A stretch of 24,139 nucleotides of DNA from a virus, in IMG/VR virus record IMGVR_UViG_3300045988_181603, positions 1-24,139 of that record; one strand, given 5' to 3'. Position numbers and translations under genes: made by a program. The notes beneath the pieces are model-generated. The model ran no database searches. It worked only from the letters and a program-made list of their open reading frames with translations, and was not told the DNA's origin. This document shows positions 1 through 24,139 of this stretch, piece after piece (position 1 is the stretch's first letter; each line of letters starts with the position of its first letter).

Positions 1-119
1 AATCTCTCTAATTTCCTTGCAAACATTAAAAATGTGGGTAATTCCTCGCAGAGGGCTATGCCACAGGTTAAAAATTTTTCAAAAAATCTTTCGAGCATTG
101 AAAGTAATGCAAAAAAAGG
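1..119. repeat. Terminal overlap copy 1 (identical to 24021-24139)
   Basis: Direct comparison: aatctctctaatttccttgcaaacattaaaaatgtgggtaattcctcgcag... occurs at both ends. Confidence 0.95.
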
Positions 120-3100
120 AAGTTCGGGATTATCGAAGCTACTTTCCAATATCGAAAAAATGCTTGCACTAAAAATTTCTTTTTCAGGATTCAAAGATAT
201 GTTTGAAAAATCCTCTGAATTGCTGGAAGACTTCAACTATTTTGATCAGGCATTTAATCAGGTAGCAGAAAACGCAACTAAAACCTGGTCAGAAGCAGGT
301 TACAATTCTGCTGAGGAATACACAAACTCTTTTAGTAAAAAAGCCCGCGAACTAACTTCTAAAATGTCCGGATTCGATATTTCAGATACTGGCATCTTGT
401 CGACAAATAAAACTGGCAAGTCACTCGGCATGGACCCGTCACTACTTTTGAATGCTCAAGCTACATTTGCACAAATATCTTCCTCCATGGGAACAACTTC
501 TGAACAGGCGGCCAATTTGTCCGATGCATTGACCATGTTAGGGGCAGACCTCGCATCTCTCCGAAATGAAGATTTTAGCAAAGTTTATGATAATTTGACT
601 TCAGGTTTGACCGGCATGAGTAGAGCTGTCGATAAATACGGAATCAACATTCGAGTAGCTAACTTGCAGCAGGAAGCGGCAAACCTTGGAATACAAACAT
701 CTGTTTCCAACATGAGTCAGGCTGATAAGGTTCTGTTAAGGACCATCGTTATGCTGGAAAGTTCAAAAGGAGCATGGACGGATTTATCACGGACGATTTC
801 GCTCCCAGTAAACCAAATGCGTATATTCAAGAATAATTTGGCTATGATATCCCGATTGCTAGGAAACACCTTTCTTCCGATTGTAGCAAAGGCATTGCCA
901 TATATCAACGGACTTGCGATTGCTTTTCAGCGTCTCCTAATGGGAATTGGGAATCTGACAGGAGCAAATAAGCAGATCGGGCAAATGTACGGTGGTATCA
1001 CTAAAGGTTCAGATGTGCTTTCGGATGCTCTGGACGCTGTAGATGATACAGATTTATCCGGATTGAATGATACAACAGCTGATGCGGATGATAATTTAAA
1101 GAGTGCTGCTAAAAACGCCAAAAAGTTAAAACAGTTCCTTGCGTCCTATGACGAATTGGAGGTTATGAGCAAAAACGATGATTCATCTACAAGTCTTGGC
1201 TCAACGAAACTTAAAGTACCAGCTGTAGATACATCTGCATTAGACTCAAGCATTTTAAATGATAAATTAAACAGTTTACTTGGAGAATATCAAAAACAGT
1301 GGGATGCCGCCTACAATTCCATGGAAAATAAGGCCATGGCGTTCGCTAATAAAGTGCAGAGCGCTTTTGAAGCTTTAAAAACTGCTGCCGAGCCAACGAC
1401 TCAAGCATTGCAGAAATTATGGAATGAGGGTTTGAAACAGTTCGGAAATTTTACCTGGACATCCCTGAAAGATTTTTGGGAACATTTTCTAAAACCACTT
1501 GGGAAATGGACCTTGGGTAAAAAGGGACTGCCTCGGCTGATAAATGCTTTCAACAACTTCCTGACAAAGATAAAGTGGGGAAAAATCAATAAATCTCTGA
1601 GAAAGTTCTGGGATGCACTGGAACCACTGGCCGAAAATGTCGGTACCGGTATCCTCAACTTTTTCGACGATTTGTCGGAAAAAACAAGTGGATTAGTGAA
1701 CAAGCTTCCGGGTGGCATTGATAAGATAACAGAATTGATAAAGAAAATAAAACCCGAAACTGCGCAGAAGGTCGGATACGCTATCGGGCAGATTGCCACA
1801 TCCTTACTAATGTTCAAAGGATTAAAAAGCATCTCTGGAATTATAGGGAATTCTGGCATTGGTAAGTTCATATCTCAATTGGCCAAACATCCTCTTTTGA
1901 CAATAGCAGGTGGAATAACTGCCATTGTACTGGCCCTTGATAAGTTTGGAGTGATCGATATTGACTGGAGCGGAATCAGTCAGAGCTTTGAGAATCTAAA
2001 AGAACGTGTTGTAAATTTCGCCAAAAAAATTGATTGGAAGACCGTAAGCAATAACATTCAAGAAGGCATTAAAGCCGTTACTGACAAGATATTTGATTTT
2101 ATCGATAAGATTGACTGGAATGCGCTTTGGGAAGGCCTGACAAACACAATAAGCACAGTTTGGACAGGTATCAAAGACTTTGCCGGTTCTATTCACTGGG
2201 ACACAATCAAGGACGGATTAAGTAAGTTTGCTGAGGTATTGCCAGATTTGGCAGCAGGCTTCGGGCAGTTAAGCGCGGATATAATTAATAAATTGGCAGA
2301 TGCCTTTGATTGGTTGATGACTAAACTCAGCACGCTGGATCCAGATACTCTTGAAAAAATTGGATATGGCTTAGGTGTGATTTTCGCAGTCAAAATCGGT
2401 ACGGATTTAGCTGGTAAAATATTAGGTATTGCCAGCTCTTTCTCATCTTTAGGAGTTGCTCTCAAAGGGCTGAAATGGCTAATAAAAAGCGGCGAAGCTT
2501 TGGCGAGTGGTCTTGCTGCTGTTCTTGGTACGGTTGGCGGTGCAGCAGTGATTGGAGCCGGACTTGGTATTGCTGCATCTGAACAAACTGTTGATTCTAA
2601 GGGGAAAGAGCAGCAGTTTGAAGAACAGTCGAATAATTCAAGTTCAGCTGCAAGTCAATTATCTGCTACGTTGAAAGACCTTAATGAAAGAGGAATCATT
2701 ACATCCCAGACGTTCGATACGCTTTCTACGAAGCTTAATTCTTTTGTTGCTGGGACAAGTACAACGACAATATTTACCAGTATGAGAGACGCCATGATTG
2801 AAGCAGGTGTGTCGACAGATGAGCTGGCTGTATCAATCAATAATACAAACAGTGATCTGCAGTCATTCTACAACTTGGTAGCTCATGCGAGTGAAGGTGC
2901 CGGTACCGCAGATGGTCAGATAAAATCTTTTGCAGAAGCGATTAACACAATTAATCCGGATCCAATTATATCTAAGCTGTACACTTTACAGTCTACCGAA
3001 GAGCAGATCACATTTGCAAATCTGATTGTTGAGTCCTCAAATGCAATAGATCAGATGGGTGGCATCTGGGAAAATGGAAAACAGATTCTCGGCGAAAAAG

Positions 3101-4245
3101 CTATTGCGATTTATCAGGCAATTCAGGACGGATTAAAGCCAGATGAGAACGGATTCTACAATCTCGGAAATGGTCAAATGGTGCAATTTGGCAAGGCTAT
3201 TGATGATTATGATAAGACCCTCAAAGAAAAAGCCACATCAACCCTGACAGAGCCACTAAGATTAGGAATATCCGAAGTTCTTCCAGAATACAGCTCGTTT
3301 GGTGCAGACGCAAACGGATGGTTCATCACCGGACTGACAAGCATTGACCCAAGTACCGGCGTAAAGGTACAGGAAGCATTTAAAAGCGTCCTGGATAAGA
3401 TTGATACGACTTCGGCTGAGAGCATCGGAAAGACTACCGGTACGAATATGACAAGCGGAATAACAAAGGGAATGGAAGAAAATTCCCAAGCTGTCAAAGA
3501 TGCTACAAATAAGATGATTGACGATAATGTGAAAACTCCTGCTCAAGATTCTCTCGGCATTCACTCTCCGTCGAAGTGGTTTGAAAACTTGGCGAAATTT
3601 TGCGGTTCTGGGTTCGAGAATGGGCTTGACATTGGCTTTGATGGGGCTTTTACGTGGTTCGAAGGACTGCGAGCTAAAATTAACAATAGCATTGGCTCTC
3701 TTCACAGTGTTGGATGGAACGCCATCATTGGAATGAATAACGGTATGGTCGAGGCGGCAACTCAGCATCTGTACAAGAACGCTCAGGCAATTGCTGAGAA
3801 TATTGTAAATAAATTCCGCACATTTCTCAAAATAAATAGTCCATCACGTGTTATGGCAGAGATTGGTGGTTTTACTGTTGAAGGTATGATTGCTGGTATA
3901 CAATCCAAGATTCCTCGGATGGAAAGTACAATTCAAGATATCAGCAATGAAATTAAAAGGATGCAAACACCTCCCGCTGAATTAATTCCTCAAAATTATT
4001 TTTCTCAAAAACAAAGATTTGACAGCCAAAATCAAATAGATATGAGTAGCTTTATGGATACTGTTGAAAGAGAAGTTATGGCAATCAGCAGTAATGTGTT
4101 TAATAACAATGAATATCTCGGACAAGCAGTCAGAAATAGTCTTAACGGTATGGCAATCTATGCGGACGGACACTTGATTGGATATCTCCAAGAGGAAGAC
4201 CGACAATACAGGAACAGATCTGGCTACGGACTGTTCGAAGGGTAA
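1..4245 (+). CDS. Tail tape measure protein, remainder. The track's GTG start at 34 is internal; the true start is at 23790.
   Basis: Very long helical protein. It has a Gly/Ala-rich hydrophobic central segment (GYGLGVIF...AVLGTVGGAAVIGAGLGIAA) and periodic I/F-D-W repeats. Two C-terminal xHSPS/NSPS motifs (GIHSPSKWF, KINSPSRVM) are typical of siphovirus tape measure proteins. Confidence 0.85.
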   Translation, partial: NLSNFLANIKNVGNSSQRAMPQVKNFSKNLSSIESNAKKGSSGLSKLLSNIEKMLALKISFSGFKDMFEKSSELLEDFNYFDQAFNQVAENATKTWSEAGYNSAEEYTNSFSKKARELTSKMSGFDISDTGILSTNKTGKSLGMDPSLLLNAQATFAQISSSMGTTSEQAANLSDALTMLGADLASLRNEDFSKVYDNLTSGLTGMSRAVDKYGINIRVANLQQEAANLGIQTSVSNMSQADKVLLRTIVMLESSKGAWTDLSRTISLPVNQMRIFKNNLAMISRLLGNTFLPIVAKALPYINGLAIAFQRLLMGIGNLTGANKQIGQMYGGITKGSDVLSDALDAVDDTDLSGLNDTTADADDNLKSAAKNAKKLKQFLASYDELEVMSKNDDSSTSLGSTKLKVPAVDTSALDSSILNDKLNSLLGEYQKQWDAAYNSMENKAMAFANKVQSAFEALKTAAEPTTQALQKLWNEGLKQFGNFTWTSLKDFWEHFLKPLGKWTLGKKGLPRLINAFNNFLTKIKWGKINKSLRKFWDALEPLAENVGTGILNFFDDLSEKTSGLVNKLPGGIDKITELIKKIKPETAQKVGYAIGQIATSLLMFKGLKSISGIIGNSGIGKFISQLAKHPLLTIAGGITAIVLALDKFGVIDIDWSGISQSFENLKERVVNFAKKIDWKTVSNNIQEGIKAVTDKIFDFIDKIDWNALWEGLTNTISTVWTGIKDFAGSIHWDTIKDGLSKFAEVLPDLAAGFGQLSADIINKLADAFDWLMTKLSTLDPDTLEKIGYGLGVIFAVKIGTDLAGKILGIASSFSSLGVALKGLKWLIKSGEALASGLAAVLGTVGGAAVIGAGLGIAASEQTVDSKGKEQQFEEQSNNSSSAASQLSATLKDLNERGIITSQTFDTLSTKLNSFVAGTSTTTIFTSMRDAMIEAGVSTDELAVSINNTNSDLQSFYNLVAHASEGAGTADGQIKSFAEAINTINPDPIISKLYTLQSTEEQITFANLIVESSNAIDQMGGIWENGKQILGEKAIAIYQAIQDGLKPDENGFYNLGNGQMVQFGKAIDDYDKTLKEKATSTLTEPLRLGISEVLPEYSSFGADANGWFITGLTSIDPSTGVKVQEAFKSVLDKIDTTSAESIGKTTGTNMTSGITKGMEENSQAVKDATNKMIDDNVKTPAQDSLGIHSPSKWFENLAKFCGSGFENGLDIGFDGAFTWFEGLRAKINNSIGSLHSVGWNAIIGMNNGMVEAATQHLYKNAQAIAENIVNKFRTFLKINSPSRVMAEIGGFTVEGMIAGIQSKIPRMESTIQDISNEIKRMQTPPAELIPQNYFSQKQRFDSQNQIDMSSFMDTVEREVMAISSNVFNNNEYLGQAVRNSLNGMAIYADGHLIGYLQEEDRQYRNRSGYGLFEG

Positions 4246-5425: not shown

Positions 5426-6459
5426 TCGCATTGATTGAGAATAAAAAAGATTCGCTTCTGCTATCGTTGGATAGTGTTGAAGAAAAAGAAATCGAATGGC
5501 TTGTACCAGAATACTTACCCAGAGGGCAAATTTGCATCATGGCGGGGGACGGCGGCTCCGGAAAGACTACAATCTGGTGTAGTTTAGCGGCTGCTATAAG
5601 TTCTGGGACGAAGGTATTTTTTGAACGGACACCAGAGGAATTTGTTGAGAAAAAGCCACAAAAGGTACTTTTCTTCAGTTCTGAAGATTCCATTGAATAT
5701 GTGCTCAAAGCCAGATTACGAAAAGCTGGGGCGAATCTCAGTAATATATTTTCTGTTAATCTAAAAAATGAAAAGTTTTCAGAAATTAAATTTAATTCAC
5801 AGTTATTGCGCGATTTAATAGAGCAAGTACAGCCGGCTCTTGTAATCTTTGATCCGGTACAATCATTTATTCCGGATGGCGCGAATATGGCAAAGAGAAA
5901 CGAGATGAGATCTTGTTTAAACCACTTAATCGGCATTGGTGAACAGTATGGGACAACGTCTTTGATCGTCGTTCACACCAATAAGCGCACTGGAGCGTTC
6001 GGGCGAAAAAGAATATCGGATAGTTCGGATATTTGGGATATTGCGAGATCGGCGTTAGTCGTCGGGAACGTGTCAGGGAGCAATTTGCGCTATATGTCGC
6101 AGGAAAAATCAAACTACGGAGAATTAGCGCAGACAGCTTTGTTCAGCATAGATGATTCTGGCGCACACCTGGAAGAATATACAGACCGCCGAGACGCAGA
6201 CTTTGTTCGGGAGCAGGACTTCGAAGGCAGACAGGCACCGCAACGACAGGACGCTGAACAATTTATCAAGGATTTCCTGAGAGGCGGCAAAAAACCAACA
6301 TCAGAACTTGATGAAGCGGCACAAGCTGCAGGAATTAGTCGTTCAAGCCTGACAAGAGCTAAAACGAAGTTACGGAAGGATAATGTAATGAATGTGAAGT
6401 CCGAAGGTTTTGGCGGAAACAAAGTATTTTACAGCTACTTACTCGACCAGCGTTCATAG
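5422..6459 (+). CDS. RecA-fold AAA_25/RepA-like replicative helicase with a C-terminal winged-helix region
   Basis: Walker A GDGGSGKTT, Walker B-like LVIFDPV, SLIVVHTNK. C-terminal HTH-like AGISRSSLTRAKTKL. Start overlaps the upstream stop (GTGA). Confidence 0.75.
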   Translation: MIALIENKKDSLLLSLDSVEEKEIEWLVPEYLPRGQICIMAGDGGSGKTTIWCSLAAAISSGTKVFFERTPEEFVEKKPQKVLFFSSEDSIEYVLKARLRKAGANLSNIFSVNLKNEKFSEIKFNSQLLRDLIEQVQPALVIFDPVQSFIPDGANMAKRNEMRSCLNHLIGIGEQYGTTSLIVVHTNKRTGAFGRKRISDSSDIWDIARSALVVGNVSGSNLRYMSQEKSNYGELAQTALFSIDDSGAHLEEYTDRRDADFVREQDFEGRQAPQRQDAEQFIKDFLRGGKKPTSELDEAAQAAGISRSSLTRAKTKLRKDNVMNVKSEGFGGNKVFYSYLLDQRS

Positions 6460-16738: not shown

Positions 16739-16850
16739 AATCTGAAATAGAAGATGCGTTTTCATACGTGTATATATTATATACGTTTATATCGTTTAAC
16801 GTTTAGGGGGCCTTGAAACCCTTGATTTTACTGGATTTTTGAGACATAAA

Positions 16851-16975
16851 AACGAGAAATATACAGTAATAAACGAGAAATATACAGTTTAAAAACGAGA
16901 TTTATACAGTTTGCAGAGAGAAAGCCATAATTTTAAAAACGAGAAAAACACAGTTTAAAACGAGAATTTTTACTT
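16851..16975 (+). repeat. Replication iterons (AACGAGAAATATACAGT, 4 good copies plus 1 degenerate) at 21-22 bp phasing
   Basis: Copies at 16851-16867, 16872-16888, 16894-16910, 16938-16954 and 16959-16975. An AT-rich tract lies at 16745-16800. All sit directly upstream of the rep gene. Confidence 0.85.
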
Positions 16976-17031
16976 GAACTTTATCGTTTTAAATGATATG
17001 ATTTATTCATCATTTGTATGGGGGATTTTAT

Positions 17032-17955
17032 ATGGATTTAGCAGAGCATATCTGGAGCACGGATGAAAATAATGAATTGAAAAAACGAGAGATAGACACT
17101 CGTGAATCTGTCCGGACTGTTACATCAAATCAATTTATAACAGCCTGTGGGTTGGAAAATATAAGCCTAAAGGCAAGGAAACTTCTATATGTAGCAATTG
17201 GCCAGTGCAGAGTAACGGATACAGAATTTTATGAGTATTCTCTTTCTGTTAGGGATTTTGCCGCATTGATGGATGTGGACCCCAGTAATGTTTACAGAGA
17301 GGGAGAGTCAATTGCGGATGAACTTTCTAAGGGGTTTATAAAAATCAAACCGGAAAGCAGCACTGTTAAATTCAAGAATTATCCGTTATTCGCGGAATGC
17401 TATATGGACAATGCTAATATCGTTTTTGCTTTAAATAAGCGAATGACCGATTATTTTCTCATGATAAAGGGGAGCTTTACACAGCCATTACTGGCAGATT
17501 TCTTAAAAATGAAAAGTCCTTACAGCATGGCAATTTGGCATCTTATGCAACGAGAGATGAACAGTCAGAAGCCAGGATTAACTCAGACAATAGCTTTTCA
17601 ATTAAGTTTGCAGGAGATACGAGAAGTTACCGGCACTCAGAAGAAATTTGAACGTTTAAGCGATATTAAAAGATATGTGTTGGATAAAGCAATTAGAGAA
17701 ATCGAAGAGAATTGTGGCGTTGTGATCACATACACAAATATCAAGAGAGGTAGAACTGTGACGGGATTTCAGTTTGAGGCAGTATCTGAATTTCATGTAG
17801 ATCCATCTAAAATTAAGCAGTCTACCAGAAATAAAGTAAATGTGAGAAAAACACAGCCGATGATAGAACCCCCAAATAGCGTAAAAAAATCTGCAAATAA
17901 AAATGAAGTACCTGGACAGGAAAGCATATTTGATATTTTGGAAAAATTGCAGTAG
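17032..17955 (+). CDS. rep: Rep_3 (RepB-like) theta-replication initiator protein
   Basis: VTSNQFITACGLENISLKARKLLYVAIGQ..., YSMAIWHLMQ..., LSLQEIREVTG...RLSDIKRYVLDKAIREIEENCGVVITYTNIKRGRTVTGFQFE match the Rep_3 pattern. Iterons lie upstream. A TGaTATGAT -10 lies near 16994. Confidence 0.85.
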   Translation: MDLAEHIWSTDENNELKKREIDTRESVRTVTSNQFITACGLENISLKARKLLYVAIGQCRVTDTEFYEYSLSVRDFAALMDVDPSNVYREGESIADELSKGFIKIKPESSTVKFKNYPLFAECYMDNANIVFALNKRMTDYFLMIKGSFTQPLLADFLKMKSPYSMAIWHLMQREMNSQKPGLTQTIAFQLSLQEIREVTGTQKKFERLSDIKRYVLDKAIREIEENCGVVITYTNIKRGRTVTGFQFEAVSEFHVDPSKIKQSTRNKVNVRKTQPMIEPPNSVKKSANKNEVPGQESIFDILEKLQ

Positions 17956-19835: not shown

Positions 19836-19904
19836 AGGCAAAAACGATGTGAGTATCCATGTTGGTACTCGAAAAGCCCCGGAGGTACGAACTCCGGGGC
19901 TTTT
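19836..19904 (+). ncRNA. Candidate type I antitoxin sRNA (RNA II-like, ~68 nt)
   Basis: Runs from the promoter above to the intrinsic terminator. It carries AAAAACGATGTGA and TCCATGTTGG, which also occur at 20014-20040 and are therefore complementary to the minus-strand toxin mRNA start region. Confidence 0.55.
19872..19904. terminator. Bidirectional intrinsic terminator shared by the convergent sRNA and toxin mRNA
   Basis: AAAA-gccccggag-gtacgaa-ctccggggc-TTTT. Confidence 0.75.
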
Positions 19905-19949
19905 CTATTCCGTTTAGGCAGGGTGGCTTGTTCCCTAGGCTGGCTACCT

Positions 19950-20036
19950 TTACTTATCTCCATCCAACCATTTGCAAATGTAGTAGGCAACTACACTCGC
20001 CAAAATAGAGAGTAAAAACGATGTGAATAACTCCAT
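19950..20036 (-). CDS. Type I toxin candidate, Fst/Ldr-like, 28 aa, not in the ORF track
   Basis: MELFTSFLLSILASVVAYYICKWLDGDK: one TM helix plus a charged tail. GGGGGTGA SD 7 nt upstream. Minus-strand TGaTATAAT -10 at 20093-20085. Confidence 0.6.
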   Translation of the reverse strand: MELFTSFLLSILASVVAYYICKWLDGDK

Positions 20037-20261
20037 GTTGGACTCACCCCCTCTCTGCACCTGTCTAGGGGCGGTAGCTCAACCATTATATCATAATTTG
20101 TTCTGTAAAACATTTCTTTTTTATTTCCCCAAAATCGAATTCGAATTCACTTTTTTAGTTCCTGACAGTGAAATGAGCAATCATTCATCCTCTATCAGGA
20201 CTTTTTTATTTTCGGAGTTTTTTATCATTATGTAATTGTCAAAGAAAAACGACAGGAGCTT

Positions 20262-20585
20262 GTTGGAAAAAAGAAAACTGCCGCCACCCGAAGAGGGAAA
20301 AGGGCAGAGTCAGCAACTGATCAGAGGCGTTTCACGTTAGCCGCCTATCCATTGGATAAATGAACGTGAGCAATTCCGGAGCTGATACCGGAAAGACTTG
20401 CAGGAAGTCTATAGAAATATCGCTTTATACGAGTTTTTTGAACGTATAAAGGGATATGTGCCAGAATTCCGGTCGATCTGGTTCCTGAGACGAGGCCGAA
20501 ACATGAACCATAACATGAGCAGCAGGGGATGTCGTGAAACGTGACGCCCCCCCCTAAAGTGCTAAAAATGTGGGTATGCTTAGCC
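20262..20585 (-). ncRNA. Candidate structured ncRNA of unknown class (strand tentative)
   Basis: At least 6 perfect local hairpins: 20349-20361, 20374-20393, 20395-20409, 20423-20451, 20461-20481 and 20480-20509. A 9-bp long-range pairing joins 20328-20336 and 20534-20542. Minus-strand TTGTGT - 16 bp - TGaTACTAT promoter at 20619-20592. Terminator-like hairpin plus T-run ending near 20265. No RBS-preceded ORF. Confidence 0.35.
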
Positions 20586-20634
20586 TTAAGAATAGTATCA
20601 CTAATTAATTTTGACACAATGGGAGGGAGAACGG

Positions 20635-21486
20635 ATGGGACACAAAAATAAAAAATCATTAATCCGGCAGACTCAGGAAAGGCTGGATAGTATGCTTGCG
20701 ATTGGTCAGAGCAAATACGAGGACAAAAAATTAGATCTTACAGAGAGAAAAATATATAGCTGGAATACCTATCGGAGCTATCTGCAACAATGCTGCCAGT
20801 TCGTCCGGTATTGCAGAGACAATCATCATTGTAAGAATCTGGCAGACTGCCGACAGTACGTGGGAGAATGGATGGAGAGCCGGAAGGACCTTTCAGCATA
20901 TACTCAGAAGCTGTCTGCAAGTGCACTCTGTAAGCTATATGGCGAATCCCTGGAAGAACTAGAGATAACCACCAAACGAGCCGCCAGAAGCGAAATAACA
21001 CGCTCCAGAGGGACAGCGAAAAGGGATGCACATTTCTCAGAACAGAAAAACGCTGATTTTGTCGAATTTTGCCGCTCAACCGGTTTACGACGGTCAGAAA
21101 TAACAAAGCTCCGCGGAGATCAGCTCATTGAGAGGGATGGCGAACATTATATCTGTATCACTGGAAAGGGAGGAAGGTACCGGGAAGCTCCTGTATGTGG
21201 CAATGTGGAGCTTGTGATCAGAAAGATGCAGGCAGCAGGGACAGGGAAAGTATGGAAAAAAGTGCCGTCAAATGCTGATATTCATTCATATCGGGCGGAT
21301 TATGCGACAAGGATATATTCCAGTCATGCCCGACCAATTGAAGAGATTCTGCAGAAAGAGCGGTATATTTGCCGGAAAGATAAAGCAGGGATTGTGTACG
21401 ATAAGGTTGCCATGTTAGAAGCATCAAAAGCACTTGGACATAACAGGATCAGTGTTGTGGGGGAGCATTATCTCCGGATAGAGTAA
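20635..21486 (+). CDS. Tyrosine recombinase (phage integrase / Xer-like family)
   Basis: GLRRSE (Arg I), GKGGRYR (Lys), IHSYRADYAT (His-x-x-Arg), LGHNR, GEHYL (Tyr nucleophile). ATG 6 nt after GGGAGGGA. Confidence 0.9.
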   Translation: MGHKNKKSLIRQTQERLDSMLAIGQSKYEDKKLDLTERKIYSWNTYRSYLQQCCQFVRYCRDNHHCKNLADCRQYVGEWMESRKDLSAYTQKLSASALCKLYGESLEELEITTKRAARSEITRSRGTAKRDAHFSEQKNADFVEFCRSTGLRRSEITKLRGDQLIERDGEHYICITGKGGRYREAPVCGNVELVIRKMQAAGTGKVWKKVPSNADIHSYRADYATRIYSSHARPIEEILQKERYICRKDKAGIVYDKVAMLEASKALGHNRISVVGEHYLRIE

Positions 21487-22745: not shown

Positions 22746-23040
22746 TTTCCTATGAAATCATACTGAATCATACATTAAAATGTTGTATAATATAAAATGT
22801 CAAAGTTGATACCAAATGATACTGAATGATACCTAAATATTTGATATAATGTATTATGTAAAAAGTTGAACCCAAATGAACCCTCGGAATTTGATATAAT
22901 ATATATGTATAAATGTATTTTTCTAACTTCCTATGAAAAAAGTATGGAATAGTATGATACAAAACTGCTATGATTATAATATAAAATATGACACTAGAAA
23001 CCACTGAAAAACACTTTGGTTTTTGATATAATAAATAAAT
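22746..23040 (+). repeat. Array of five degenerate ~50-70 bp units, each ending in a TTGATATAAT-type extended -10 box
   Basis: -10 boxes at 22786-22791, 22845-22850, 22895-22900, 22975-22980 and 23027-23032. Each is preceded by a unit-specific duplicated word: ATCATAC x2, GATAC(C) x3, GAACCC x2, GTATGxA x2, GAAAxCACT x2. Confidence 0.6.
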
Positions 23041-23789: not shown

Positions 23790-24139
23790 ATGGCAGATAA
23801 TACAATTGACAGTCTTTCCATTGAAATTAGTAGTAATGCTTCCGGAGCTTCTCGCTCAATCACTAATTTGTGTAACAGACTTGAACGGTTAGATAGAACA
23901 ACATTTTCTGGAATAAAAAATTTAAAACGGTATTCCCGACAAATGAACGAGCTTAACGAAGCTGCACGAAAATTAAATAGTGTCAAGTTCAACAACAAGC
24001 TCTTTAATTTAAAGACTCCCAATCTCTCTAATTTCCTTGCAAACATTAAAAATGTGGGTAATTCCTCGCAGAGGGCTATGCCACAGGTTAAAAATTTTTC
24101 AAAAAATCTTTCGAGCATTGAAAGTAATGCAAAAAAAGG
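23790..24139 (+). CDS. Tail tape measure protein, 5' part (continues at position 1 across the circular junction)
   Basis: ATG at 23790 lies 6 nt after AAAGGAG. The frame is open to the window end and is in frame with the 34..4245 track ORF after subtracting 24020. Full protein = 77 + 1414 = 1491 aa. Confidence 0.8.
   Translation, partial: MADNTIDSLSIEISSNASGASRSITNLCNRLERLDRTTFSGIKNLKRYSRQMNELNEAARKLNSVKFNNKLFNLKTPNLSNFLANIKNVGNSSQRAMPQVKNFSKNLSSIESNAKK
24021..24139. repeat. Terminal overlap copy 2 (identical to 1-119)
   Basis: Same as above. Consistent with an assembler k-mer overlap on a circular contig. Confidence 0.95.

Follow-up and report, generated by a model that had tools for sequence, protein, structure and literature searches.

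The recombinase locus and the extent of its module

The DNA considered here, hereafter the window, is a stretch of 24,139 nucleotides (nt), positions 1 to 24,139 of IMG/VR virus record IMGVR_UViG_3300045988_181603, which encodes a tyrosine recombinase of 283 amino acids (aa) at 20635-21486 on the plus strand. Directly upstream, at 20205-20634 of the same strand, lies a complete non-coding module, the leader of the recombinase gene, which is inherited with this gene as a unit. An initial annotation of the sequence had described 20262-20620 as hairpin-dense and non-coding, and had proposed either a structured RNA or a recombination site. The hairpin-dense, non-coding character was borne out and proved to be conserved, with corrections in strand, extent and detail. 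Both proposals are partly retained, as the two kinds of element appear side by side, each with a putative function. Comparative analysis indicates that the module is a real, widespread and previously uncatalogued non-coding element tied to the recombinase, in which a hairpin-forming DNA palindrome, designated P0, is joined to an undescribed plus-strand structured RNA.

The recombinase is distantly Xer/IntI-like. Its catalytic residues R, K, H-x-x-R, H and Y are invariant across 15 aligned homologues, family scans returned weak Xer/IntI-like matches, and the best match of its profile to a solved structure is IntI4, at a weak E of 0.0013 and over query residues 35-189 only. With the NCBIfam integron-integrase model it scores 28, the cut-off being 265. 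A Shine-Dalgarno sequence, GGGAGGGAG, and the ATG can be read at 20621-20637 (plus strand), and the N-terminus MGHKNKKS is kept in homologues, indicating a conserved start codon. The protein collection contains 2843 recombinase homologues, and about 130 loci were gathered from genomes, IMG/VR, metagenomes (a scan of 80 loci) and PLSDB. Over 100 homologous recombinases, encoded by Clostridia plasmids, phage-plasmids and metagenome-assembled genomes, have a relative of the module upstream. Many homologues come from human and animal gut metagenomes. The family is carried by cryptic plasmids of small size and by phage-plasmids of ~24 kb from Oscillospiraceae and relatives; homologues are found on small non-mobilizable plasmids, beside rep genes and iterons, and one host plasmid, NZ_CP095095, belongs to a Flavonifractor plautii strain labelled VE303-08. 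The recombinase of a Streptococcus suis small plasmid is only 37% identical to that of the window, and the pBAS2 enzyme is a distant homologue with 32% identity. A tblastn search of the recombinase against phages found nothing. In many loci, a conserved gene of ~230-260 aa without family assignment lies directly 3' of the recombinase gene (L030 1233-1964; L157 3083-3787; L193 3554-4309; L196 5034-5810); the window carries no such gene.

The boundaries of the module follow from comparisons between contigs. In the window clade (an alignment of 13 sequences with 80-96% protein identity), homology between otherwise unrelated or differently related contigs extends from 20192-20203 to 21471-21486. 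Compared with locus L116, the module is 84% identical and its flanks are 92-94% identical: the window-clade module has been exchanged as a block. Across otherwise unrelated contigs, pairwise homology begins no more than ~10 nt from the 5' edge of P0 and stops at the recombinase stop codon; a conserved right-end site beyond this codon was looked for and none was found. The GC content rises from 0.345 (20100-20299) to 0.465 (20300-20499), as the initial annotation had noticed. Its view that the region holds no genuine open reading frame (ORF), a 104-aa minus-strand ORF being spurious, is likewise upheld, since every frame is broken by indels among close relatives, namely in the P0 loop (11 to 22 nt), in a C-run (5 to 10 C) and in an A-run. 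A small ORF in 20236-20340 was rejected on the same grounds. Compared with dinucleotide shuffles, the fold is stable on both strands (z -2.9 for the plus and z -3.6 for the minus strand). No match of the region was found by blastn in PLSDB or INPHARED. The initial annotation had matched the region to no RNA family, and a cmscan check against Rfam 15 agrees: there was no match at gathering score in the window or in 40 related loci, and nothing relevant at E<=10 inside 20262-20620. Literature searches found no RNA partner described for any tyrosine recombinase, and the non-coding partner of this recombinase family is previously undescribed.

The P0 palindrome

P0 is an imperfect palindrome at 20417-20457 (plus strand), composed of ATATC-G-CTTTATACG, an 11-nt loop and CGTATAAAG-G-GATAT. 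It extends the 9-bp stem ctttatacg/cgtataaag, the only form in which it had been listed before, to a 15-bp imperfect stem. The window copy (ATATCGCTTTATACG...CGTATAAAGGGATAT) is a divergent variant of a family-wide element, the canonical form of which consists of ACGGTTA, a self-complementary covarying hairpin insert of 18-70 nt and TAAACGG. Within the window clade the arms are invariant and the loop varies from 11 to 22 nt. Short forms of P0 have inverted arms of 15-19 bp around a centre of 4-7 bp, and many lineages carry 20-70 nt between conserved arms. The distal stem is A/T-rich. Mismatches are conserved in the canonical form (A·G and G·A, with a further G·A in inner position 2), and the window has G·G; they are absent from L115 and from the F. 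plautii plasmid.

Covariation supports the pairing of the canonical element. Among P0 sequences selected by their conserved flanks only, 88.5% of cells are paired versus 74.6% after shuffling, and nine pairs are changed on both sides, which was reached in 8/500 shuffles. A P0 covariance model (R2) matched at E<1e-3 in 63 of the 100 loci scanned, always on the plus strand (recombinase sense), and a second plus-strand P0 at this threshold was found in none of the 100. A blind scan of IMG/VR for the P0 flanks gave 55 matches, including five full hairpins, four of which lie 250-500 nt upstream of a recombinase gene. The fifth (L231, IMGVR_UViG_3300037400_006691) lies beside iterons, and in this record (minus-strand coordinates 5688-6110) a promoter TTGATT-17-TAGAAT directly follows P0. 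In type-E loci, P0 sits between two terminators.

Related palindromes occur in more distant plasmids. The TTTATACG..GAACGTATAAA core of the window P0 recurs in a palindrome of an S. suis small plasmid (L194 1171-1235; TTTATACG..GGTA..GAACGTATAAA). In pATHE02/pBAS2 (L195 516-590), GTAAACCGC-GGTA-GCGGGTTAC lies directly 3' of a TTGACA-17-TATGAT promoter, and the pBAS2 and S. suis palindromes have a common GCGGTAGC centre.

Rearrangements were observed next to P0 in several loci. In L011 (1808-2830), a canonical P0 (1812-1847) is parted from the recombinase leader by a cargo gene of ~200 aa (1956-2566) and a terminator, after which a hybrid hairpin AAGGTTATCCGTG..CACGGATAGGC is found at 2788-2830; the cargo is flanked by GGTTATC direct repeats and looks cassette-like. 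Compared with L016 (position 2740), L022 carries a 766-nt insert at 1978-2742 with a 123-aa minus-strand ORF, placed exactly between the terminator of the upstream gene and P0, and terminating in ACGGTAAT 8 nt ahead of the ACGGTTAT of P0. A 1.7-kb segment upstream of P0 is inverted between the related contigs L012 (264-1976) and L024 (1721-6); this inversion may be recombinase-mediated or mosaic.

The P1 hairpin, the conserved boxes and a candidate pseudoknot

Comparison of the 140 nt upstream of each homologue's start codon brought out elements that the initial annotation had not singled out. P1 (20502-20517, plus strand) is a hairpin CAUG-AACCAUAA-CAUG with a conserved loop and a covarying stem. 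The 8-nt loop AACCAUAA is constant, the stem of 4-7 bp differs by lineage, and the hairpin is present in nearly every homologue, down to 42% protein identity. To the same depth, a box AAAAAUGUGGGUAUG is kept at 20565-20578 (plus strand). It is followed at 20578-20590 (plus strand) by a second box, GCUUAGCCUUAAG (family consensus GCUUAGCUUUAAC; GCUUAGCYUUAAC). The family order is P1, an A-rich linker, the box UGUGGGU(AUG) and the second box GCUUAGCUUUAAC, 25-40 nt before the ribosome-binding site. The second box is conserved across classes, including a stand-alone RNA of plasmid pRGI00233 and the F. plautii plasmid. Some lineages carry variable hairpins between the two boxes, and hairpin insertions of variable length occur at fixed places of the leader, with element spacings from 10 to >60 bp.

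In 33 distinct sequences selected only by the loop motif and a downstream GTGGGT, 88.4% of P1 stem cells are paired versus 47.5% after shuffling. The covariation score is 1.015 versus 0.233 in shuffles (0/500 reached it), and slid controls remain at <=0.31. In the 524 kb searched, a model of P1 and box (R1) had matches nowhere but directly ahead of recombinase homologues, always in the sense orientation. An independent blind scan of IMG/VR for loop and box gave 75 matches, of which 74 lack both the stem and a recombinase and served as negative controls; the sole match with a stem lies 71 nt from a recombinase homologue. No significant extra copies of P0 or P1 were found elsewhere in the window or loci. 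Tandem duplications of the P1 hairpin with its box were noted in two unrelated lineages (L009 2819-2988 and L010; L196 3777-3851).

The loop of P1 may form an H-type pseudoknot with the box. UGUGG (20569-20573) can pair with CCAUA of the loop (20508-20512), and RNAalifold selects this pairing on the window clade. Loop and box change together by class, with CCAU:GUGG in class 1, GCC:GGC and ACC:GGU in class 2, and ACAU:GUGU in both tandem copies of the F. plautii plasmid. As these amount to about three independent changes, the pseudoknot is only suggestive. Pairing of the P1 loop with the start codon was considered and finds no support in class 2. On inspection, a sigma-54 or DnaA-box reading of the box (TGTGGGTAT) was also rejected, based on spacing, mismatches and the differing class-2 boxes. 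Class-2 RNAs contain a further hairpin, P3, in which the stem covaries and the 17-nt loop, GAGUAAUCUUUUUGAAA, is conserved, as well as a similar motif AGUAACCUUUGUGAA (L157 470-500; L193 2740-2700 on the minus strand; L144 705-735; L196 3575-3640). Both GAGUAAUCUUUUUGAAA and AGUAACCUUUGUGAA resemble the 3' arm of P0, GAGTAAAC, and are complementary to its 5' arm, GGTTACTC; the window lacks them.

Hairpins specific to the window clade

The remaining hairpins were analyzed in the window clade. Here 93% of cells are paired in the local hairpins, and nine pairs are changed on both sides versus 4.3 in shuffles (2/500 reach nine); when stem partners are slid along the alignment, pairing falls to 32-48%. 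The proposed local hairpins are thus conserved with compensatory changes among the 13 relatives. The stems tatcc/ggata, ttccgg/ccggaa, gactt/aagtc, ctttatacg/cgtataaag, ccaga/tctgg and tcacgtt/aacgtga are kept, and in L001 and L002 unrelated sequence again forms a hairpin at several of the same positions. All the stems first listed are present in the sequence, with three coordinates displaced by 1-3 nt: tatcc/ggata lies at 20346-20350/20354-20358, cgtgaaacg at 20533-20541 and tcacgtt/aacgtga at 20332-20338/20363-20369.

Regarding the individual hairpins, all on the plus strand, H1 (20278-20307) consists of CUGCC/GGCAG with an inner CCC/GGG, and seen on the minus strand it would resemble the terminator-like hairpin of the initial annotation. 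It shows one compensatory change from G-C to A-U, and plus-strand U·G wobbles in six cells. The A-run at 20267-20272 also varies in length among relatives. H3 (20332-20369), UCACGUU/AACGUGA, encloses UAUCC/GGAUA (20346-20358) and is kept in the clade with plus-strand G·U wobble changes; L001 and L002 form an equivalent helix of different sequence. In the hairpin UUCCGG/CCGGAA (20374-20393), the CCGG/CCGG core is invariant across the 13 sequences including L001 and L002, and since it never varies it offers weak evidence either way on pairing. The hairpin GACUU/AAGUC (20395-20409) has compensatory changes and a longer stem in L114-L116, and is replaced in L001 by a CUAUAG/CUAUAG hairpin. The clade-specific CCAGA/UCUGG (20461-20481) is invariant in 11 sequences and deleted in L001 and L002, and is thus dispensable. 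P2 (20525-20551), GGGG-A-UGUCGUG AAA CGUGACG-CCCC, is a variable hairpin between P1 and the box, with three plus-strand wobble pairs and compensatory changes within the clade. At its position L001 forms a hairpin from unrelated sequence, and in other lineages the place is taken by short covarying hairpins or left empty. Within P2, the C-run of the 3' strand (20547-20554) ranges from 5 to 10 C among relatives of 80-96% protein identity; the length variation of C-run and A-run could be homopolymer slippage or assembly noise.

Two of the listed pairings did not survive this comparison. The 9-bp long-range pairing that was thought to enclose the hairpins (20328-36/20533-41) has two adjacent central pairs broken in 3/13 sequences, all in the window's own subclade, while the partner is constant; its score is barely above, and not distinguishable from, that of shuffles, and it competes with two conserved local hairpins. 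The ggttc/gaacc stem takes up one half of the conserved hairpin P1, and in L001 and L002 the 5' half of this stem is deleted. Most of the initially listed stems are clade-specific decoration, and the parts that define the family are P0 and the combination of P1, box and GCUUAGCYUUAAC.

Strand and transcription

The folded strand can be read from the positions that depart from Watson-Crick pairing. On the plus strand, P0 and P1 together contain 23 G·T/T·G and 4 A·C positions, P0 alone 16 versus 2, and further plus-strand wobbles occur in P2, H1 and H3. This bias, together with the significant matches of both covariance models on the sense strand only, identifies the plus strand as the folded one.

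The initial annotation had favoured a ~320-nt minus-strand RNA, running from an TGATACTAT promoter (20597-20592) to a hairpin and U-run at 20307-20265 and therefore antisense to the leader. The minus strand does have a promoter-like extended -10 and the terminator-like H1 with a U-run, the A-run before H1 is conserved in the clade, and the minus-strand fold reaches the z of -3.6 given above. When the region was tested as a plasmid antisense (countertranscript) system, consensus-like minus-strand signals were present and partly lost in relatives: 4/13 have lost either the TG or the last T of the -10. The promoter scan did not report this promoter. The wobbles, including those of H1 and P2, would turn into A·C mismatches and thus contradict a minus-strand fold, and homologous modules have plus-strand promoters and terminators. 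A minus-strand RNA is hence very improbable.

Promoters of the relatives point to transcription of the plus strand. In ten loci with long leaders, a sigma-70 promoter starts 1-6 nt after P0 and matches 10-12/12 consensus positions in nine and 9/12 in the tenth, against a background of 10% per window for promoters of >=9/12. P1 and box lie 250-700 nt downstream of these promoters. The 5.5-kb rat-gut plasmid pRGI00233 carries a 12/12 promoter right after P0, followed by a predicted RNA of ~375 nt (fold z -4.0) with P1, box and GCUUAGCUUGAAC, and then by an intrinsic terminator, iterons and rep. The 4.4-kb circular plasmid L157 contains, in this order, P0, promoter, RNA, iterons, rep, recombinase and orf234. 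From the long-leader promoters and the pRGI00233 promoter and terminator, P1 and box appear to be transcribed, and the RNA can be a separate gene. As P0 lies outside the transcript in those relatives and has strand-biased wobbles, it is read as a DNA element with a folding sense strand. Hand-picked candidates in the window, TTTTCG-16-TGTAAT (20209-20236) and an extended -10 TGACACAAT (20612-20620), are weak and inconsistently conserved.

The same data bear on the possibility that the entire region serves as a recombination complex of double-stranded DNA, made up of a res/cer-like core and accessory sites; RNA-like structure would then be a by-product of inverted-repeat sites for proteins. Its position directly upstream of the recombinase gene resembles that of gene-adjacent sites such as Tn4430 IRS, difSL and loxP. 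Short P0 forms have the expected inverted arms and small centre, and inverted protein sites covary too. On the other hand, the P1 arms of 4-7 bp differ between close relatives while the loop is invariant, elements lie 10 to >60 bp apart and have hairpins inserted between them, the centre of P0 can be as long as 70 bp, wobbles are biased towards one strand, and P1 and box lie deep inside the transcription units of relatives. Taken together, this explanation is improbable.

Other features of the window

The first and last 119 nt of the window (1-119 and 24021-24139) are an identical, exact direct repeat, implying a circular assembly of ~24.0 kb. The element looks like a phage-plasmid: it carries a tape-measure gene (34-4245), a Rep_3 initiator gene (17014-17955) with iterons of 21-22 bp at 16847-16966, 3.5 kb from the module, and, according to protein family scans, genes for ParA and an antirepressor. 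Upstream of the module, an Fst-like type I toxin ORF is located at 19950-20060 on the minus strand (locus ~19860-20100). Its surroundings contain a bidirectional terminator at 19871-19905, a sub-threshold match to the SpF66 small RNA (28.7 bits, the gathering score being 42) and a direct repeat AAAAACGATGTGA(G/A)TA at 19840 and 20014. A 59-nt tandem repeat (22755-22879; 2.1 copies, 79% matches) lies downstream of a zinc-ribbon gene.

Proposed function of the module

The composite model that we favour holds that P0 is a hairpin site of the recombinase and that the RNA, as leader or as separate non-coding RNA, controls recombinase expression; it is put forward tentatively, with a confidence slightly short of even. 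The comparisons establish conservation, covariation, the strand, the tie to the recombinase and where promoters and terminators lie in relatives; binding of the recombinase to P0, the hairpin form of P0 and the task of the RNA are inferred. According to this model, window positions 20205-20634 would form one half, cis-acting and non-coding, of a maintenance module in two parts, and the tyrosine recombinase would be the other half. P0 would act as DNA, through a sense-strand hairpin with a conserved base, conserved mismatches and a tip that is free to vary. It may be the recognition and crossover site of the recombinase, recognized as a hairpin in extruded or single-stranded form, since no other form accounts for the presence, between conserved arms, of a self-complementary insert of any length. 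Its likely role would be the resolution of plasmid or phage-plasmid multimers, and it may double as an operator of the adjacent promoter. P0 positions are near or inside an active transcription unit, where supercoiling or strand opening would favour extrusion of the sense-strand hairpin. The remainder of the module would be a plus-strand structured RNA with a core of P1, a loop:box pseudoknot after an A-rich linker, and then GCUUAGCYUUAAC. In the window, this RNA is predicted to be a 5' leader of ~130 to 390 nt in the recombinase mRNA, setting translation or mRNA stability; on inspection, a pyrimidine box and the C-run of P2 could pair with the Shine-Dalgarno sequence. The RNA would form a gene of its own in small plasmids.

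Several observations weigh against this model. The window P0 scores only 13.9 bits (E 0.72) with the canonical model, and a sigma-70 promoter scan of the window leader found none at threshold. The window-clade P0 is embedded in a conserved leader, with ~215 nt of conserved hairpins upstream, and may therefore be transcribed there, and in pBAS2 the related palindrome closely follows a promoter. The arms of P0 are separated by 18-70 bp, a spacing that no ordinary double-stranded core site tolerates. The limited number of loop:box changes also leaves the pseudoknot, a part of the proposed RNA core, at the level of a suggestion. Finally, no recombinase homologue was found in the 11.5-kb contig of L231, so that P0 could belong to replication, and the boxes are also conserved in stand-alone RNAs with no ribosome-binding site behind them, which speaks against a role in translation only.

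The last two observations lead to separate explanations. Rather than a recombinase site, P0 might be an element of replication, for example a hairpin of the lagging-strand template of the kind used for single-strand initiation or primosome assembly, or else a structural insulator ahead of a promoter. Besides the L231 copy, the distance of 350-600 nt between P0 and iterons in L157, pRGI00233, L168 and L231 would fit such an element, as would its strand and orientation specificity and the A/T-rich distal stem. Yet P0 accompanies the recombinase family across different replication systems (Rep_3, replication initiation factor and RepL), occurs in phage-plasmids with iterons kilobases away, and is tied to the recombinase gene by the module boundaries, making this role of P0 unlikely.

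The RNA, in turn, might be functional by itself, either in plasmid replication or copy control beside an iteron origin, or as a cofactor or decoy of the recombinase at P0. In pRGI00233 and L157, P0, promoter and an RNA of ~350-375 nt are followed by iterons and rep instead of the recombinase gene; the RNA ends at the intrinsic terminator in pRGI00233 and at a weaker hairpin with U-runs in L157, and both RNAs keep the boxes although no ribosome-binding site follows. The resemblance of the class-2 loops GAGUAAUCUUUUUGAAA and AGUAACCUUUGUGAA to GAGTAAAC, and their complementarity to GGTTACTC, and the reported need of pBAS2 replication for its recombinase point in the same direction. In the window and most loci, by contrast, the RNA continues into the recombinase ribosome-binding site with no terminator, the window iterons are distant, and P3-type loops are lacking there. 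The loop/P0 resemblance involves invariant sequences, which covariation cannot test. Such an independent role of the RNA is on the whole unlikely.

A bolder extension of the composite model would regard small tyrosine recombinases of Clostridia plasmids and phage-plasmids, acting on folded P0 hairpins, as a second, independent attC-like system equipped with a dedicated RNA. The conserved loops would mimic or pair with the P0 arms, so that the enzyme would be guided, scaffolded or titrated by the RNA, and recombination would thereby be coupled with replication; we consider this a long shot. If P0 is a hairpin substrate, structure-specific recombination would extend beyond integrons and CTX-type phages, and P0 could become a source of recombination sites that are compact and flexible in sequence. 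A functional RNA would represent a new plasmid-borne RNA class that combines an invariant-loop hairpin with a pseudoknot and two boxes. Even when read plainly, as a resolution site with a regulatory leader, the module would define how a widespread set of gut plasmids is maintained and give vector builders a defined element to retain.

Comparison with known systems

Telomere resolvases act on linear replicons that end at a perfect central palindrome, and the enzymes exceed 440 aa. Since the assembly is circular, a telomere-resolvase reading of P0 was rejected; P0 is internal, its centre is not palindromic, and the enzyme has 283 aa.

Among gene-adjacent recombination systems, Tn4430 TnpI/IRS, XerS/difSL, XerH/difH and P1 Cre/loxP share with the present module a site that adjoins a small recombinase gene on a replicon needing multimer resolution. 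These sites overlap or abut the promoter region, and the short P0 forms resemble them in having inverted arms and a centre of ~6 bp. The core of Xer/dif- or lox-type sites consists of two inverted arms of ~11-13 bp around a fixed centre of 6-8 bp; short P0 forms, with a centre of 4-7 nt, fit this geometry, whereas many lineages, with 20-70 nt, depart from it. Thus the known sites are duplexes of fixed geometry, and P0 tolerates a self-complementary insert of 18-70 nt. To our knowledge, none of these four systems has an attached conserved structured RNA.

H-type pseudoknot leaders with an A-rich tail are known from preQ1-I and SAM-II riboswitches and from translational operators. The P1/box arrangement resembles preQ1-I and SAM-II in that a short hairpin loop would pair downstream after an A-rich linker, a few tens of nt before the ribosome-binding site. 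It differs in showing no sequence or model match and in being present also in RNAs that precede no gene.

A further known system is the plasmid pBAS2/pATHE02 of Caldicellulosiruptor bescii, the Xer-like protein Cbes2777 of which is regarded as a multimer resolvase and was reported as a requirement for autonomous replication (PMC5779722). It is likewise a small plasmid with a long upstream non-coding region and a related palindrome that has the same G·A-interrupted duplex. Unlike P0, its palindrome has the arms in opposite order and lies downstream of the promoter, and the P1/box model has no match there.

The bridge RNA, or seekRNA, of IS110/IS1111 elements is a structured non-coding RNA of a few hundred nt encoded immediately upstream of the recombinase gene (PMC11208160). 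The present module is similar in placing a structured RNA upstream of a recombinase gene and in the inheritance of both as one unit. The IS110 enzyme, however, is of the DEDD (RuvC-like)/serine type, in contrast to the tyrosine recombinase with R, K, HxxR, H and Y described here. Bridge RNA loops vary and match target and donor DNA, whereas here the loops are the most conserved parts and are invariant across unrelated contexts, and no transposon ends are present.

The attC sites of integrons are a folded single-stranded substrate of IntI, in which extrahelical bases and an unpaired central spacer mark one strand (PMC2727003). P0 differs from them in several respects. It lacks RYYYAAC/GTTRRRY, its base being ACGGTTA...TAAACGG, or TCGCTTTA...TAAAGGGA in the window; its polarity is reversed, GTT belonging to the 5' arm and AAC to the 3' arm; and its stem is interrupted by A·G, G·A and G·G mismatches instead of extrahelical bases. 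In integrons, cassettes that each end in an attC form an array beside the integrase gene and attI; here each replicon has one P0 and no array, the insertion of cargo beside P0 being suggestive in L011 and L022 only, and the hosts are Clostridia plasmids and phages. The profile match to IntI4, confined to residues 35-189, did not demonstrate the additional domain specific to IntI. Nevertheless, the likenesses extend to both partners. The enzyme is a simple Xer/IntI-like tyrosine recombinase, and P0, like attC, is an imperfect palindrome with conservation confined to the base of the stem and interruptions that may distinguish the strands. The terminal structure is variable in both, from a few nt to a long stem in attC and 18-70 nt, always self-complementary, in P0, and the strand-specific folding and selection of attC have a counterpart in the G·T excess of the P0 plus strand.

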